Shown here piece after piece: positions 1 through 4,418 of a stretch of DNA of 4,418 nucleotides (positions within the stretch are counted from its first letter, which is position 1; every line of letters begins with the position of its first letter). The notes under the pieces are model-generated. The model was not told the DNA's origin. It worked only from the letters and a program-made list of their open reading frames with translations, and searched no databases. Source of the DNA: a virus. Lineage: Duplodnaviria > Heunggongvirae > Uroviricota > Caudoviricetes. The position numbers and the translations under genes were made by a program. The stretch spans positions 1 to 4,418 of IMG/VR virus record IMGVR_UViG_3300010279_000132. One strand, written 5' to 3'.

Positions 1-341
1 GTCAGCCAGTCAGCGCCAGTCATGCGCTTTTCTGCATCGCCATTAGTCCACTTAACCGGTACACCAATAGCCTTCATCGCGATTTCTATTTCCCCGGCAA
101 TGGCGCTTTTTCCGCAACCAGTAAAACCAGAAACAACGACAAGAACTTCGCCTTTGGCTGGTTTTATTTCCCGTGCTTCCAGTTCTGCAATACGCTTTTT
201 GTCTGCTTCCCGTTCATCCAGTAGTGCCAGCACAATCGATGGTGTTACCAGCTCATGGAAAAGGTCCGCGTCAAATCCCCAGTCGTCATGCATTGCCTGA
301 TCTGCCGCTTCACGCAGTGCCTGGTAATTAATTTCGCTCAC
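1..341 (-). CDS. P-loop NTPase, N-terminal 113 codons only; gene continues beyond the window start
   Basis: Minus-strand frame opens with GTG at 341-339, preceded by AGGAGG (348-353) with a 6-nt spacer, and stays open to position 1. Translation VSEINYQALREAADQAMHDDWGFDADLFHELVTPSIVLALLDEREADKKRIAELEAREIKPAKGEVLVVVSGFTGCGKSAIAGEIEIAMKAIGVPVKWTNGDAEKRMTGADWL. A hydrophobic strand (LVVV) followed by GFTGCGKS fits the Walker A pattern GxxxxGK[ST]. Absent from the ORF track, presumably because it is truncated by the window edge. Family not identified. Confidence 0.55.
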   Translation of the reverse strand, partial: MSEINYQALREAADQAMHDDWGFDADLFHELVTPSIVLALLDEREADKKRIAELEAREIKPAKGEVLVVVSGFTGCGKSAIAGEIEIAMKAIGVPVKWTNGDAEKRMTGADWL

Positions 342-582
342 TGGTTGCCTCCTGTTTTTCTGCCTTCAACACCATGCGAGAACCATCATCCAGCTCCCAC
401 GCGATCTCACCACCTTCAGCCATGACCAGTCGCCACACCAATTGAGCAGCCTCATTGGTAACATCACGACCTGGATCATTGCCAACGCGCATACGTCCAC
501 CTTCAACATCGCGCATTTTTGCCAGCATGATAGTTTTTGATAGCGGTGAAAAACCAAGCTGTAGTCGTGCTGAATTACTCAC
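328..582 (-). CDS. hypothetical protein, 84 aa, GTG start
   Basis: ORF-track frame 328..582. GTG start at 582-580 overlaps the TGA stop of the upstream gene (GTGA) and is preceded by AGGAGG with a 6-nt spacer. Its last 14 nt overlap the start of the next gene. No recognisable motif. Confidence 0.55.
   Translation of the reverse strand: MSNSARLQLGFSPLSKTIMLAKMRDVEGGRMRVGNDPGRDVTNEAAQLVWRLVMAEGGEIAWELDDGSRMVLKAEKQEATSERN
337..353. repeat. 17-nt direct repeat, copy 1 (translation-initiation region of the P-loop NTPase gene)
   Basis: Plus-strand CTCACTGGTTGCCTCCT at 337-353 is identical to 578-594. On the minus strand it reads AGGAGGCAACCAGTGAG, i.e. SD + spacer + GTG start + AG. Confidence 0.9.
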
Positions 583-594
583 TGGTTGCCTCCT
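578..594. repeat. 17-nt direct repeat, copy 2 (translation-initiation region of the 84-aa gene)
   Basis: Identical 17-mer CTCACTGGTTGCCTCCT, 241 nt from copy 1. Flanking bases differ on both sides. Confidence 0.9.
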
Positions 595-1052
595 TTGCGA
601 AGCTGGGCGGCGAACTCGTTAAGTGATATGTAGCAATCTCCAAATGTTAACGAACCGCTCGACTGCATATGCTCCATAGCCATCTCCACGCCCTGCGCAC
701 GTACTTCAGCCAGGAAAGCATCGGTGGCTGGGGTTTTGATTTCGTTAAGCGCATCACTGAATCCACCACGCTCCATACCTAGCTCTGCTTCGTAATCGGC
801 ATCGAATGCAGCGTCTTTGCAGAACTTCTTCATCCCCGAACTCTCCGCTGCCAGCGCCGCGCACTTGGCCTCAAGGTTATCAATCGTGATTCCAGCAGAA
901 CGACACTCCCGCAACGCAGCTTCTAGTTTTGATTCAAGTTCACCGAACTTACGGACAAGATATTCAGCGTTTGTTTCGTTAACCTTTAAATCTCGTGGGA
1001 TGCATTTACCTTTCAGAAATCCATCCATCTCAATTAGTGTCATTTGTTTCAT
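579..1052 (-). CDS. hypothetical protein, 157 aa
   Basis: ORF-track frame 579..1052 ([16 protein letters not shown]...). ATG at 1052-1050 overlaps the TGA stop of the upstream small gene (ATGA). Protein-like composition, no stops, no recognised domain. Confidence 0.7.
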
Positions 1053-1213
1053 TTTTTCCCACTCTGCAACATCGCATTCAGATATTTGTTTTGATTTACT
1101 GACGGAAAAGAATTTCTCTTAAGCAATTCCTCTCTCGATGGCATTGGCTTTACGCGTTGGCGAATAATCATTTCTGCCGGAAGAATGCCGGGATTGTATG
1201 CAAGTCCTCTCAT
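1049..1213 (-). CDS. small hypothetical protein, 54 aa
   Basis: ATG at 1213-1211 preceded by TGAGGA with a 7-nt spacer, directly after the stop of the 98-aa gene. Translation [54 protein letters not shown]. It is the 3' part of the 105-aa ORF-track entry 1049..1366, whose 5' part overlaps the 98-aa gene out of frame. Confidence 0.45.
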
Positions 1214-1223
1214 GATAAATTCC

Positions 1224-1520
1224 TCAGTCATTACTGATAGCGCCATAACGAGAGCGATAATTACGCAGGCGCGGGTCGATATATTCAGGGAAGTGGGTAT
1301 ATGTGGCTTTGCGGAATGGTCGGATTGATGTCTGGTAAATTCTCTCTCGTTCTTCTTTCTCTGCAAGCCATATACAGTGGCGAAATTCCTTTTCCTCTTT
1401 CGTTTCCTGCGGTAGAGACATTATCCGGTCGTAGTTTCTTCTGAATTTATCCAGCACCTCCGATACGGAATTGCCGGAACAGCGGCGCGCGTCATCCGCA
1501 CCATACAGAGGCGCTGGCAT
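1224..1520 (-). CDS. hypothetical protein, 98 aa
   Basis: ORF-track frame 1224..1520. ATG at 1520-1518 preceded by AGGAG with a 6-nt spacer, 13 nt after the ssb stop. No recognised domain. Confidence 0.6.
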
Positions 1521-1533
1521 GATTTTCTCCTGA

Positions 1534-2040
1534 TTAAATTGCGTGAATAGCGTGACGAGGGAAGGGGAGAGTTACTGGTGCAAAGGGTATATCGTCGTCA
1601 AAATCCATCGGAGGTTCGTTGTGTTGTGCTGGTGATGATTGCTGCTGTGGCTTCTGTGATTGCCTGCTGGCTGCTTGTTGTTTGCTGTCGCCAATGCCGC
1701 CAAGCATTTGCATCACGCCATTAATTCCGACATGAACCTCGGTTGTGTAACGGTCTTGCCCTGACTGGTCTTTCCACTTTCTGGTTCTCAGCATTCCCTC
1801 GAAATAAATCTGATCACCTTTTTTCACATACTGCCCAACGACCTCAGCCAGTTTCCCGGATACAGCAACACGATGCCATTCAGTCAATTCCTTTTGCTCG
1901 CCAGTATTTTTATCTCGCCATTGTTCTGACGTGGCTATTGTCAGGTTAGCGAACGCTGTTCCTGATGGTGAGTATCGAACTTCCGGGTCTTGTCCTACCC
2001 GACCAAGGATAATCACCTTATTTACGCCTCTGCTTGCCAT
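1534..2040 (-). CDS. ssb: single-stranded DNA-binding protein (SSB), phage-encoded
   Basis: 168-aa product [23 protein letters not shown]...TEWHRV...[19 protein letters not shown]...[13 protein letters not shown] closely parallels E. coli SSB as I recall it: OB-fold N-terminal domain, Gly/Gln-rich linker and acidic DDDIPF motif. ATG abuts the TAA of the upstream recombinase gene (TAAATG). The frame continues 15 codons past DDDIPF (see findings). Confidence 0.93.
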
Positions 2041-2748
2041 TTATGCCACCTGTTTTAGTTCGTTAACTCTGATGTTCACTATCTGAACGCATTTAGCCTG
2101 CTCCTCCTCGTTGCCAGCCATTAATTGCCAGTCACGCTGATAACGCTCGATGAGTTTTTTCTTGTCAGTTTCTGTTGACGCATAATCGCTGAAGTCTTTC
2201 AGGATTTGTTCGCAGTCAACCGATGGAGATTTCTGGTTGGTATCTTCTGGTGATGGTTTGTTATCTGATGCTGGGATTGCCCATCCCGGAAGCGATGGAG
2301 GGAGCCAGTAAAATCCTGTTCCATCCTTCAGTTTTGCCCTGTGCCACCCCTGCTTTTTATCGAGAGATGTTTGTGCGAAACCTTCCTCAAGGTTATACAG
2401 ATACCGACCGATTCCCCACTGAACGGCAGCGCGCTTCATTGCACCGGAACGACCACCTTTGACGGCTTCTACCTGTGTGTTTTCAGCAGCATCCCATTTG
2501 GTTACCCATTCGGAATCAATCTTTATTGATATGCCGCATTCAACGCCGCCGTTGTTGGGAATATCGCGGTATTCATTGCGCCATCCTGCTTTGCCGCAAA
2601 CATCGTCCAGGCGTTTCATGATTGCCCGGTTCGTGACATAAGCCAGCACCATAGCCCACACCTTGCCATCGCGTGTTTTACCGCTTTGCTGTATTCGCCA
2701 TTCGATATCTTCAGGGCTGAATGGCTCATCGAATTTGTTCAAATCCAT
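2041..2748 (-). CDS. Rad52/Rad22-family single-strand annealing protein (Sak-like phage recombinase)
   Basis: 235-aa product. Segments YVTNRAIMKRLDDVCGKAGWRNE and AMKRAAVQWGIGRYLYN resemble conserved blocks of the Rad52 N-terminal DNA-annealing domain as I recall them (Y..R.I..L...FG..GW and KRAL..FGN). RBS GAGGTG with a 4-nt spacer before ATG at 2748. Sits directly upstream of ssb, a typical phage recombination module. Confidence 0.8.
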   Translation of the reverse strand: MDLNKFDEPFSPEDIEWRIQQSGKTRDGKVWAMVLAYVTNRAIMKRLDDVCGKAGWRNEYRDIPNNGGVECGISIKIDSEWVTKWDAAENTQVEAVKGGRSGAMKRAAVQWGIGRYLYNLEEGFAQTSLDKKQGWHRAKLKDGTGFYWLPPSLPGWAIPASDNKPSPEDTNQKSPSVDCEQILKDFSDYASTETDKKKLIERYQRDWQLMAGNEEEQAKCVQIVNIRVNELKQVA

Positions 2749-2756
2749 AATTCACC

Positions 2757-2927
2757 TCAGAATGGACATGGCCCAAGGAAATAACGCTGGTTTAATACTT
2801 CGACTCGGGACAAATTAAGGCATACCCGCATTCCTTCGCGGTCGCCATTATGGCGATACCAGAGAGCTTTCTGCGTGTACATGCGTCTCTGTAACTTGCT
2901 CTCCTTCACTGTGGTTGCAAGTGACAT
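2757..2927 (-). CDS. small hypothetical basic protein, 56 aa (candidate)
   Basis: ATG at 2927-2925 preceded by AAGGAG with a 6-nt spacer; stop TGA at 2759-2757, 8 nt before the recombinase ATG. Translation MSLATTVKESKLQRRMYTQKALWYRHNGDREGMRVCLNLSRVEVLNQRYFLGPCPF. Overlaps the 52-aa candidate by 80 nt in another frame; too short for the ORF track. Confidence 0.4.
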   Translation of the reverse strand: MSLATTVKESKLQRRMYTQKALWYRHNGDREGMRVCLNLSRVEVLNQRYFLGPCPF

Positions 2928-3006
2928 GAATATCTCCTTCGTTATCGATTAAATCTTTCATCTGACGAATGAATTCTTCGTCTGACCAGTTATCTGTAAA
3001 ACTCAT
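2848..3006 (-). CDS. small hypothetical acidic protein, 52 aa (candidate)
   Basis: ATG at 3006-3004 overlaps the TGA stop of the kil-like gene (ATGA). Translation MSFTDNWSDEEFIRQMKDLIDNEGDIHVTCNHSEGEQVTETHVHAESSLVSP; stop TAA at 2850-2848. No properly spaced SD, so it would depend on translational coupling. Confidence 0.35.
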   Translation of the reverse strand: MSFTDNWSDEEFIRQMKDLIDNEGDIHVTCNHSEGEQVTETHVHAESSLVSP

Positions 3007-3155
3007 TTCCTGCGATACCACGGAAGGTTGATAGCTGATTTCATCGCTTTATTTGCTTCAAGCCACATTTTTGAATCACCAATAAATCTGGCTATTACTG
3101 CTTTGTTCTGTGCAGCTCGAAGCATCTTGTGATTGATGGCTATTTCATTGCGCAT
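3003..3155 (-). CDS. kil: Kil-like small protein (putative host cell-division inhibitor), 50 aa
   Basis: ATG at 3155-3153 preceded by GAGGT with a 6-nt spacer. Translation MRNEIAINHKMLRAAQNKAVIARFIGDSKMWLEANKAMKSAINLPWYRRK. Sits immediately 3' of cIII, as kil does in lambda, and is of similar size. The FIGD-containing segment matches my uncertain recollection of lambda Kil; the call rests mainly on synteny. Confidence 0.5.
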   Translation of the reverse strand: MRNEIAINHKMLRAAQNKAVIARFIGDSKMWLEANKAMKSAINLPWYRRK

Positions 3156-3271
3156 AATAAGACCTCAACTCTTTTCCATCCGTCACGTAATTTACGGGTG
3201 ATTCGTTCAAGTAAAGATTCATTTAATTGGAAGGCACCCATGCGAGCGCCTCCCGCGATTGCGTAAATCAT
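3140..3271 (-). CDS. cIII: CIII-family protein (inhibitor of host FtsH/HflB protease), 43 aa
   Basis: ATG at 3271-3269 preceded by AGGAA with a 6-nt spacer. Translation MIYAIAGGARMGAFQLNESLLERITRKLRDGWKRVEVLLCAMK. The stretch ESLLERITRKLRDGWKR matches the conserved central helix of lambda CIII as I recall it, and the N-terminus MIYAIAG parallels lambda MQYAIAG. Too short for the ORF track. Confidence 0.8.
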   Translation of the reverse strand: MIYAIAGGARMGAFQLNESLLERITRKLRDGWKRVEVLLCAMK

Positions 3272-3295
3272 GGGTGGTTCCTTATGTTGGTTTTA

Positions 3296-4264
3296 TTAGT
3301 AGGTTATTTTTGTTGCGAATACTTCGCCTTTTACGATGGCTGTTATGATATTTTTAGCAACATCTTCTGATGCGCCAACCTTGATAAGGTCAGCAAGTAT
3401 TTTGTTATTTACTTCTTTCCGGTGAGCTTTATCCTTTGCTCTACGCTCTTCTTCGTCCTTGATTCTTTTTTCTTCTGCTATTCTGGCTTGCTCTTTTGCT
3501 TCAGCCTCGCGCCGGATTCGTTCAGCCTCCTCCTGTGCTTTTCGGCGTTCTGCTTCAATTGCCGCATGCTTTTCTCTTTCAGCTCGTTCTGCTGCCTCTT
3601 TTGCTTCGCGCTGTGCTCGTTGCTCGGCTTCAATGCGTTCACGCTCTGCACGTTCCGCTGCGGCCTTAGCTTCTGCTTCTCGCCTTGCTGCTGCTTCAAT
3701 TTCGGCTTTTGCCTTTGCTTCGGCTTCTGCTCTGGCTTTCTCTTCAGCTTCTCTTTTTAAGCGTTCTTCATGCTCTCGCTTTTCCTGCTCCGCTTTGAGT
3801 CTTGCCTCTTCTCTTTGGCGGTCAAATTCGCGATCCATCAAAATCGCTATTTCATGGTCAGACTCAATTTGCTTTGCGAGAGCTTCAGCTGCTGCCTTAG
3901 CTTCTTCTTCGGCTTTAATCCGCGCCTGTTCTTCCTCATAATCAGTAAGAGGCTGGCGTGCCTTGGCTTTCAGCTCATCAAGGCGATCACGCACTGTCTT
4001 GCGGTTGGCATCAATTAGCTTTGGAATTTCCTTCAGTTCAGCAACAAGGTCTTTGCCAACACCATCGAGATATGTTTTCGTCTGCGCAACTTTATACGCC
4101 AGAGAAGCGATCTCCTTTCTGCCCTTTGCCGTTGTGATATCAGGCACAAAGGACATAACTTCACGTTCAACCTTTTGAAGGATTTCTTCAATCTGGTCGG
4201 CAGACTGAAATACAGTCATTGCATTTGCTTTTTCAATAACAACTAATTCTGTTACTTCACTCAT
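3296..4264 (-). CDS. hypothetical protein, 322 aa, with a long E/R/K/A-rich charged helical (coiled-coil or single-alpha-helix-like) central segment
   Basis: ORF-track frame 3296..4318. I place the start at the ATG at 4264-4262 (MSEVTELVVIEK...), which has GGAGG (4273-4269) 4 nt upstream; the track's upstream ATG at 4318 has no RBS and would span the terminator hairpin. N-terminal about 130 aa look globular, the middle about 140 aa are E/A/K/R-rich, and the last about 35 aa (NKILADLIKVGASEDVAKNIITAIVKGEVFATKITY) are hydrophobic/amphipathic. No transmembrane segment apparent. Confidence 0.85.
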   Translation of the reverse strand: MSEVTELVVIEKANAMTVFQSADQIEEILQKVEREVMSFVPDITTAKGRKEIASLAYKVAQTKTYLDGVGKDLVAELKEIPKLIDANRKTVRDRLDELKAKARQPLTDYEEEQARIKAEEEAKAAAEALAKQIESDHEIAILMDREFDRQREEARLKAEQEKREHEERLKREAEEKARAEAEAKAKAEIEAAARREAEAKAAAERAERERIEAEQRAQREAKEAAERAEREKHAAIEAERRKAQEEAERIRREAEAKEQARIAEEKRIKDEEERRAKDKAHRKEVNNKILADLIKVGASEDVAKNIITAIVKGEVFATKITY

Positions 4265-4276
4265 ATATCCTCCATC

Positions 4277-4303
4277 AAAAAAATTGCCCTCACATTGGAG
4301 GGC
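4277..4303 (-). terminator. candidate rho-independent terminator (tL1-like) on the minus strand
   Basis: On the minus strand: GCCCUC-CAAUGU-GAGGGC (6-bp stem with 5 G:C pairs, 6-nt loop; plus 4286-4303) followed by AA and seven U (plus 4277-4285). The RBS of the next gene begins 3 nt after the U-run. Confidence 0.55.
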
Positions 4304-4342
4304 AAAGAAGATTTCCAATAATCAGAACAAGTCGGCTCCTGT

Positions 4343-4418
4343 TTAGTTACGAGCGACATTGCTCCGTGTATTCACTCGTTGGAATGAATACACAGTGCAG
4401 TGTTTATTCTGTTGTTTA
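4343..4418 (-). other. possible 3' end of a minus-strand ORF entering from beyond the window (24 codons then TAA at 4345-4343)
   Basis: One minus frame is open from the window edge: KQQNKHCTVYSFQRVNTRSNVARN*. Too short to distinguish from chance. If real, it would be the gene preceding the terminator, the position the N gene occupies in lambda. Confidence 0.2.
4366..4393. repeat. perfect 9-bp inverted repeat with a 10-nt spacer
   Basis: GTGTATTCA (4366-4374) ... TGAATACAC (4385-4393), spacer CTCGTTGGAA. Lies upstream, in transcription sense, of the terminator and the first gene. Function unknown. Confidence 0.6.

Follow-up and report, generated by a model that had tools for sequence, protein, structure and literature searches.

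A 17-nt linker at gene junctions in the early-left region of lambdoid phages as a probable initiation signal and homology patch for cassette exchange

The window considered here is a 4,418-nt stretch of viral DNA (positions 1 to 4,418 of the IMG/VR record IMGVR_UViG_3300010279_000132, Caudoviricetes) that covers the early-left region of a lambdoid/P22-like enterobacterial phage or prophage and has every gene on the minus strand. Two of its gene junctions carry the identical 17-mer AGGAGGCAACCAGTGAG (minus-strand sense). The 17-mer, which reaches ~22 nt with the CGCAA in front of it, is probably a gene-junction linker of the early-left accessory ("ea") region that serves as an initiation signal and, at the same time, as a patch of homology for the exchange of gene cassettes. 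The observations behind this reading are the junction position of the linker, the two frames in which it is read, the variety of its flanking genes, the conservation of its spacer, the concentration of breakpoints at it and a pair of empty and filled sites.

The two linker copies in the window

The linker copies and the genes that they join are the following.

578-594, minus strand: linker copy 1, with Shine-Dalgarno (SD) sequence, spacer CAACCA and the GTG start (582-580) of the DUF7446 gene.
595-599, minus strand: CGCAA extension of the linker, which supplies the Arg and Lys codons of the ..RKGGNQ-stop tail; the conservation profile rises here, at about -5.
337-353, minus strand: linker copy 2, with the same SD and spacer and the GTG (341-339) that starts the Ea22-like gene.
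579-1052, minus strand: 157-aa gene with an Ea22-family C-terminal segment (upstream cluster 0, tail common to 63 members).
328-582, minus strand: DUF7446 gene, 84 aa, the cargo of the cassette (PF24233, E 1.3e-18; phrog_1578).
3-341, minus strand: 5' part of an Ead/Ea22-like gene (VSEINYQALREA...) that runs off the window (PF13935, E 4.8e-13).

Both copies are built from an AGGAGG SD, the 6-nt spacer CAACCA and a GTG start. The repeat is exactly 17 nt long, as the adjoining bases differ (A/C on the 5' side, T/C on the 3' side), and the spacing of the copies is 241. No third match exists in the window on either strand with up to three mismatches, and two copies arose in 0/200 dinucleotide-preserving shuffles (expected count 0.01). 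The identity of the two junctions had been pointed out in a preliminary description made from the letters of the window alone, and the exact matches at 578-594 and 337-353 bear it out.

The two copies are read differently by the genes that enter them. In copy 1, the triplets GGA GGC AAC CAG TGA close the 157-aa open reading frame (ORF) as ..GGNQ-stop (TGA 581-579), and a GTGA stop/start overlap is formed with the 84-aa ORF. In copy 2, the 84-aa ORF passes through in another frame as ..QEATSERN-stop, which produces a 14-nt gene overlap with the upstream stop ending 14 nt after the start of the GTG. The TAA of the 84-aa ORF (330-328) lies within codons 3-4 of the Ea22-like gene. Whenever a gene reads the linker in this second frame, its stop codon is provided by codons 3-4 of the gene that follows (window 328-336), and both common Ea22 N-termini place it at the same spot (AGCGAAATTAAT gives TAA, AGCAAGATTGAC gives TGA). 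At both copies the upstream ORF contains the SD in its 3' end, and both downstream proteins begin V-S. The ORF reading thus agrees with the earlier account of a first copy that ends its upstream gene (..KGGNQ-stop) and a second that is read in another frame (..QEATSE..).

The GTG starts are backed by independent annotation. Positions 2-70 of the DUF7446 profile align from residue 7, position 1 of the Ead_Ea22 profile aligns at residue 2 of the third ORF, and PGAP (NCBI) assigns the same GTG starts in independent Escherichia coli genomes. The ORFs, the Pfam alignments and PGAP therefore concur with the proposal that the 17-mer supplies SD, spacer, GTG and V-S starts. The downstream proteins are unrelated, as had been stated: BLASTP of DUF7446 against the Ea22-like protein returns no alignment at E<=100. 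The earlier naming of the third protein as an NTPase lacks support; the protein has an Ead/Ea22-like N-terminus (PF13935). A P-loop-like GFTGCGKS motif follows this N-terminal domain (window 3-170) before the gene leaves the window; the matches of the GCGKS segment to adenylyl-sulfate and phosphoglycerate kinases are far sub-threshold (E ~0.006-0.009, scores far under the cut-off).

Occurrence of the linker among viral contigs

The exact 17-mer is present in at least 120 viral contigs. The 120 listed contigs were chosen for carrying it, which biases the counts made on them; with the window they contain 131 occurrences. In 131/131, which are all on the coding strand, the GTG opens a V-S ORF. 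In 95 of the occurrences the upstream ORF has its stop within the linker and the tail ..RKGGNQ-stop; in 36 it ends 4-34 nt past the linker in the other frame. At 32 of these 36 sites, the stop lies 9 nt past the linker after the tail ..EATSE(Q/R)(D/N)-stop. As two frames are used on one and the same DNA, conservation does not concern the peptide tail. Conservation forms a sharp block from about -5 (CGCAA) to GTGAG in 37 non-redundant contexts, the CGCAA extension is kept with every upstream gene that uses frame 1 of the linker, and the changes in variant linkers fall in the spacer or the first base. The placement of the 17-mer at gene boundaries of related phages, on the coding strand and not at random positions, is what the preliminary description had anticipated.

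The genes around the linker vary, again as anticipated: about 15 upstream families unrelated to each other meet about 12 downstream ones, and clustering of the proteins gives about 19 upstream and 21 downstream clusters in 38 combinations. The commonest downstream partner is Ea22-like (VSEINYQALRE../VSKIDYQALRE..; cluster 0, 93/131). Fourteen combinations have a non-Ea22 downstream gene, with similarity lost right after GTGAG. These genes include DUF7446 and genes that start VSGKRMTN.., VSVTVEKI.., VSNRFYMM.., VSESKCQI.., VSQQTRIS.., VSIVQRCR.. and VSVYLIDK... An extended 61-nt junction is matched by 432 phage records, and in 262 the match spans 80% or more of the junction; the records are mostly Escherichia and Stx-converting phages, with some Salmonella phages.

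The predominance of Ea22-like partners could suggest plain paralogy, with the copies being conserved 5' ends of tandem-duplicated Ea22-family genes that have no role in exchange. The conserved VS(E/K)I(N/D)YQALRE N-termini of the 93 Ea22-like ORFs fit such an origin, as do the upstream tail ..QLRKGGNQ-stop, which belongs to Ea22-family C-termini (phrog_368), and the start GTGAGCGAAATTAAC of lambda ea22. The explanation fails because unrelated genes flank the linker on both sides: copy 1 precedes DUF7446, which is unrelated to Ea22, the 14 combinations above have non-Ea22 genes downstream, and DUF2737 and other unrelated upstream genes bear the tail. The linker is moreover read in two upstream frames, and lambda ea22 shares the GTGAGC start but has a different ribosome-binding site (RBS) segment. 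Paralogy alone is accordingly considered very unlikely.

Spacer conservation and homology breaks in Abc2-selected loci

Because the first set was selected for the 17-mer, a second sample was taken by Abc2 (anti-RecBCD) alone. Eighty loci were fetched, and the 62 with at least 2.5 kb downstream of abc2 were analyzed. One or two linker sites (at most two mismatches) lie downstream of abc2 in 57/62 loci, always on the strand of abc2 and with 0 on the opposite one. Their position ranges from +162 (directly after DUF2737) to +1851 nt, before varied genes. The number of copies per locus is 0-2 in this sample and up to 3 in the 17-mer-selected set.

All 62 GGAGG-N6-GTGA sites in the stretch downstream of abc2 have the spacer CAACCA (45) or a one-substitution variant of it, and CGCAA or AGCAA stands directly before most of them; GGAGG and GTGA are fixed by the search pattern, and only the constancy of the spacer is informative. 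The sole other GGAGG-N6-GTGA sites of these loci belong to an unrelated sequence, GGAGGATTTATGTGA, with the spacer ATTTAT. Convergence on SD and GTG would not fix the spacer, and its conservation therefore indicates that the sites share ancestry.

Homology breaks were scored by ungapped comparison at 78 sites of the same sample, in pairs that were at least 90% identical over 100 nt on one side; a break was called at <60% identity on the other side. Of the left-matched pairs, 266/314 (85%) break at the linker, as do 169/211 (80%) of the right-matched pairs; the pairs include closely related prophages and are not phylogenetically independent. Control anchors at -300, -200 and +140 gave break rates of 0-3%. 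Many phage matches to the window (including those of HK97, HK446, HK544 and ECP1) end at 574-578, the downstream edge of copy 1, and in the biased 17-mer-selected set BLAST endpoints on the window peak at 351-360 and 571-580.

The 241-bp cassette in empty and filled sites

The unit that lies between the two copies can be delimited by comparing two E. coli genomes.

337-577, minus strand: cassette unit of 241 bp, the DUF7446 gene body with its 3' linker copy (from B7A versus EcE.CRE.COL).

In E. coli B7A, the site is empty: abc2, DUF2737, the 157-aa gene, the linker (GGGAGGCAACCAGTGAG) and an Ea22-like gene follow each other. In E. coli EcE.CRE.COL, a complete genome, the site is filled; DUF7446 stands among B7A-like neighbours between two exact linkers 241 nt apart. 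PGAP annotates a 4-nt GTGA overlap at the linker in both genomes. One 241-bp unit was explicitly removed from EcE.CRE.COL, and realignment with B7A then gave an identity of 88-100% in each 50-nt segment between about -100 and +350 relative to the linker. The two genomes differ by exactly one 241-bp unit, which identifies window 337-577 as the cassette. A synthetic empty site made from the window's own flanks was not covered over 80% or more by any complete E. coli genome, as the flanking genes are themselves mosaic.

The same arrangement recurs elsewhere. The 241-nt spacing of two copies is found in four further loci (L055, L058, L094 and L098), and the DUF7446 cassette stands after three different upstream genes. 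In 27/121 sequences (the 120 listed loci and the window), 2-3 tandem linkers surround different cassettes, among them 87-aa, 124-aa, 214-aa and 335-aa genes and several Ea22 variants. Both readings offered in the preliminary description, a scar of gene exchange at a shared linker and selection for a coupled initiation signal, are upheld. The first is supported by the homology breaks and the linker-bounded empty/filled pair, and the second, for which the spacer constancy at 62/62 sites is the informative result, is compatible with exchange and not an alternative to it. That the 84-aa gene and one copy together form a 241-bp cassette, and that most copies elsewhere precede Ea22-like genes, had been overlooked.

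An assembly artefact, against which the preliminary description had advised a check, or a chance repeat is close to negligible as an explanation. It has the shortness of the repeat in its favor, to be set against the shuffles, the at least 120 independent viral contigs, the 432 records that match the 61-nt junction and the two-copy arrangement, which is found both in the four loci named above and in complete genomes such as that of EcE.CRE.COL.

Direct repeats around a small single-gene insert also bring to mind the footprint of a mobile element or site-specific system, for example a transposon-like target-site duplication, an integron-like cassette site or a homing-endonuclease target, and HNH endonuclease genes do occur in the region of some relatives. 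This is highly improbable. Terminal inverted repeats, a hairpin-forming site and significant RNA or DNA structure are all absent at the copies, and profile searches find no transposase, integrase or endonuclease in the cassette. One repeat sequence is used in all genomes around quite different cassettes, unlike target-site duplications, and the repeat is itself a functional RBS and start. Three specific candidates were rejected. For an integron attC cassette, no inverted repeat lies at or near the copies, the fold z is 0.65/0.22 and the window contains no integron integrase. For a transposon or miniature inverted-repeat transposable element with target-site duplication, terminal inverted repeats are missing and the same 17-mer flanks different cassettes everywhere. 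For a structured RNA element at the linker, folding around both copies is no better than in shuffled controls (z 0.65, 0.22).

Proposed mechanism

The linker would act on two levels. On the mRNA level, it would be a complete and strong initiation region that restarts translation where the upstream gene stops, and it presumably drives coupled translation. In frame 1 the TGA of the linker would end the upstream gene, and in frame 2 a TAA or TGA supplied by Ea22 would do so 9 nt further on. Stop and start being combined in this way, any cassette with a linker at its end would leave the gene behind it expressed.

On the DNA level, the linker would be the sole patch of identity common to otherwise unrelated cassettes. 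Non-allelic exchange between collinear co-infecting or resident phages could then insert, replace or delete whole genes at their boundaries, and exchange between two direct copies within one genome could likewise add, swap or delete cassettes. The joints were probably made by homology-dependent recombination at the linker, through the host machinery or an annealing protein of the phage, which is Rad52-like in this window and Erf, Sak4 or Red-beta in relatives. A Rad52-like recombinase is encoded 1.5 kb from the linker, with SSB and Abc2 as further neighbours.

Several points weigh against this mechanism. With 17-22 nt, the linker is under the ~30 bp quoted as the minimum for Red-beta recombination. 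Exchange may therefore need additional partial homology (the ..QLRK tail, the Ea22 N-terminus), or it may be rare and fixed by selection; the non-Ea22 cassettes, however, are without that extra homology on one side. The counts from the 17-mer-selected set carry its bias, and the pairs of the break test their lack of independence. Joints also occur apart from the linker: anchors at -120, +220 and +300 reveal further ones inside the flanking genes, and in the 17-mer-selected set, intragenic BLAST endpoint peaks lie at ~611-620, 681-690, 731-740 and 871-880.

Additional endpoint peaks at ~931-940 and 1061-1070 mark joints within the 157-aa gene and at the 3' end of DUF2737, and several PHROGs match different segments of the 157-aa protein, as is also the case for the Ea22-like protein. 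With joints inside the 157-aa gene and the DUF2737 3' end (window 600-1070), exchange is not confined to the linker.

The shortness of the linker also speaks for an explanation by selection only, according to which it is kept as a particular translation signal (an optimal coupled restart or a site to which a phage or host factor binds) and the joints are illegitimate and filtered by selection. The perfect AGGAGG, the near-optimal spacing and the GTGA overlap agree with this, as does the confinement of the observed changes to the spacer or first base, whereas the constancy of GGAGG and GTGA in the spacer search is no evidence. The start-associated sequences of mycobacteriophages provide a precedent for a conserved RBS-region sequence that includes bases not pairing with 16S rRNA (PMC3203893). 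Illegitimate joining, however, would not recreate one spacer at more than 60 junctions, and some ten unrelated genes share the exact nucleotide at which they begin after GTGA(G). Between the empty and the filled site the difference is exactly one repeat unit, and one copy stays behind, as is characteristic of exchange between repeats. The copies per genome are few (1-3) compared with the 93 start-associated sequences reported across the Cluster K phages analyzed. Selection without exchange is thus unlikely, and a function as translation signal is compatible with exchange at the linker and does not exclude it.

A further possibility, for which the chances are slim, is that the linker is a recognized element and not just a passive stretch of homology. 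It would then be a site for a phage- or host-encoded RNA or protein that co-regulates the translation of the accessory genes behind it, as is suspected for the mycobacteriophage start-associated sequences, or else the preferred substrate of the annealing protein. In the latter case the ea region would be a dedicated plug-and-play array of cassettes that are also exported to unrelated phages (P1-like and Vequintavirinae copies).

Distribution across phages and hosts

The linker is found in well-known lambdoid phages. HK97 gp37 ends in the exact 17-mer, and the hkaH/hkaG junction of HK620 has a copy with one mismatch. Lambda and P22 have no junction copy at up to four mismatches; lambda ea22 shares only the GTGAGCGAAATTAAC (GTGAGC...) start, and P22 eaD has an ATGA junction. 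In HK97 (L121 2772-2788, record 22771-22787; also L172 6224), the linker is followed by only a ~34-aa remnant of the Ea22 N-terminus (VSKIDYQALREIAKH..), which stands before an annotated terminator and xis and looks like a truncated cassette left after a deletion.

A P1-like phage and a myovirus of the Vequintavirinae likewise carry linkers together with ea-type genes. In the latter, the 133.9-kb vB_EcoM_TH18 (L192 2011-2027; ON075799.1 ~29198-29214), a one-mismatch linker lies at a 4-nt gene overlap, in an ea-type block of EaA, ea22 and a 214-aa gene starting VNNRFYMM... Such cassettes therefore exist outside lambdoid phages. The P1-like MH422554.1 (L193 790-806, 2012-2028) has two linker sites, one of them exact, before a VSNRFYMM.. 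gene and an Ea22-like gene; the stretch around them is mostly unannotated in the record. Matches of E. coli plasmids to the DUF7446 region may represent the same kind of phage-plasmid.

In bacterial genomes other than Escherichia, the 17-mer is at chance level. A scan of bacterial contigs (one genome per species) gave 65 matches in scattered, unrelated phyla, with an estimated ~70 expected in 596 Gb, and only its two Escherichia matches are genuine junctions; the scan is thus uninformative on hosts beyond Escherichia. Strict ORF criteria for a junction-like site are passed by 4/55 chance sites versus 68/120 listed viral sites, which makes for a weakly informative control. Loose criteria are passed by 26/56 chance sites versus 113/122 viral sites, as every frame of a high-GC genome tends to hold long ORFs. 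The case for genuine junctions is carried instead by the PGAP annotation, the Pfam support for the starts and the strand bias.

Segments of window 1-1300 have matches in 247 phage records and in 2258/5426 complete E. coli genomes. Among these matches no record covers 80% of window 1-1300, and the region is therefore strongly mosaic.

Relation to known systems

The kind of element to which the linker belongs is known, and in exactly this phage group, so that the linker is a clean example of it and not a new phenomenon. Boundary (linker) sequences between lambdoid modules are part of a model that is credited to Susskind and Botstein 1978 and Clark et al. 2001 (HK620) in two later papers (PMC3233612, PMC3029335). 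The present linker resembles such boundary sequences as a short conserved sequence at a gene boundary with alternative non-homologous flanking genes and mosaic joints; the phage group and the early-left location agree as well (HK97 and HK620 copies). It differs in being RBS, start and stop at once, in being read in two upstream frames and in forming direct repeats around single-gene cassettes. The gene-boundary position, the alternative non-homologous flanks and the break in homology that define boundary sequences are all found, and the linker is a new or newly documented example of them. The 17-mer was not found in the searchable full text of papers, a search that did not extend to Clark et al. 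2001, and the ea22 papers contain no discussion of the junction.

Overlapping ATGA/GTGA stop/start junctions with translational coupling are common in the nin and ea regions of phages. The linker shares with them an SD within the upstream ORF 3' end, 6 nt before the start, and an overlap of the two genes, which is GTGA at copy 1 and 14 nt long at copy 2. Ordinary coupled junctions, in contrast, are not identical in sequence between unrelated gene pairs, whereas here 17-22 nt including the non-pairing spacer are conserved.

The start-associated sequences (SAS) of Cluster K mycobacteriophages have the consensus 5'-GGGATAGGAGCCC and occur at 93 sites across the phages analyzed (PMC3203893). Like the linker, they are described there as conserved asymmetric sequences with an SD core that stand in one orientation before unrelated non-structural genes and sometimes hold the upstream stop. 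Their sequence, host and phage group are different, they are without the start codon, and the accessible text describes no insertion or deletion of cassettes bounded by SAS copies (PMC3203893). The SAS consensus and the many copies are missing in the present case, and RBS-region conservation in one orientation is shared, so the resemblance is functional only.

According to De Paepe 2014 (PMC3945230), Rad52-like recombinases promote relaxed homologous recombination and mosaicism. In this work, the minimum for Red-beta recombination is quoted as ~30 bp and mosaicism is scored in 50-nt windows (PMC3945230); Martinsohn 2008 is cited for the view that lambdoid mosaicism stems from the annealing proteins of phages (Red-beta, Erf, Rad52-like). 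The phages are the same, and their mosaic segments are likewise flanked by short patches of residual homology, but the linker is shorter than both the 50-nt windows and the ~30 bp minimum of those studies.

Gene content of the locus

The minus-strand genes of the window, assigned by Pfam profile and PHROG matches, encode a charged 322-aa protein, Kil, a small recombinase-associated protein, a Rad52-like annealing protein, SSB, Abc2, DUF2737, the 157-aa protein, DUF7446 and the Ea22-like protein. Features apart from the two linker junctions are as follows.

1049-1213, minus strand: DUF2737 gene (Pfam), ending ..NAMLQSGKK-stop at an ATGA junction without a linker.
2757-2927, minus strand: 56-aa protein, just upstream of the Rad52-like gene, with a PHROG annotated "recombinase" (phrog_1723).
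3003-3155, minus strand: Kil (phrog_2055).

In at least 20 other loci, DUF2737 is present as an allele that ends ..NAMWRKGGNQ-stop within a linker copy (upstream cluster 1; +162 after abc2). The last few codons of DUF2737 (window 1049-1075) are exchangeable together with the junction. In phrog_368, the C-terminus of the 157-aa protein is joined to an Ea22 N-terminus. The 322-aa protein (3296-4264, minus strand) is very rich in E, A, K and R, and imperfect repeats of 27-37 nt occur within it; it has no Pfam family and matches phrog_1376, phrog_21365 and phrog_17211, all PHROGs of unknown function. Just upstream of its gene lies an inverted repeat of 22 nt (window 4356-4403, 82% complementary, 4-nt loop) that could be a terminator or an operator-like site.

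Significance

No new kind of system is revealed by the linker. For annotation, it allows the GTG starts and the short V-S.. genes of the region to be called with confidence, and for engineering, it would offer a natural junction that keeps downstream genes translated. Phage mosaicism has long been debated between homologous exchange at short linkers and random illegitimate joining followed by selection. The usual objection to the linker model is that most boundaries yield no such sequence (PMC3029335). At the present locus, a sharply defined and very common linker comes together with several cassettes, two reading frames and sites that are naturally empty or filled, so that the debate can be tested directly in HK97, its relatives and other well-behaved phages of E. 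coli.

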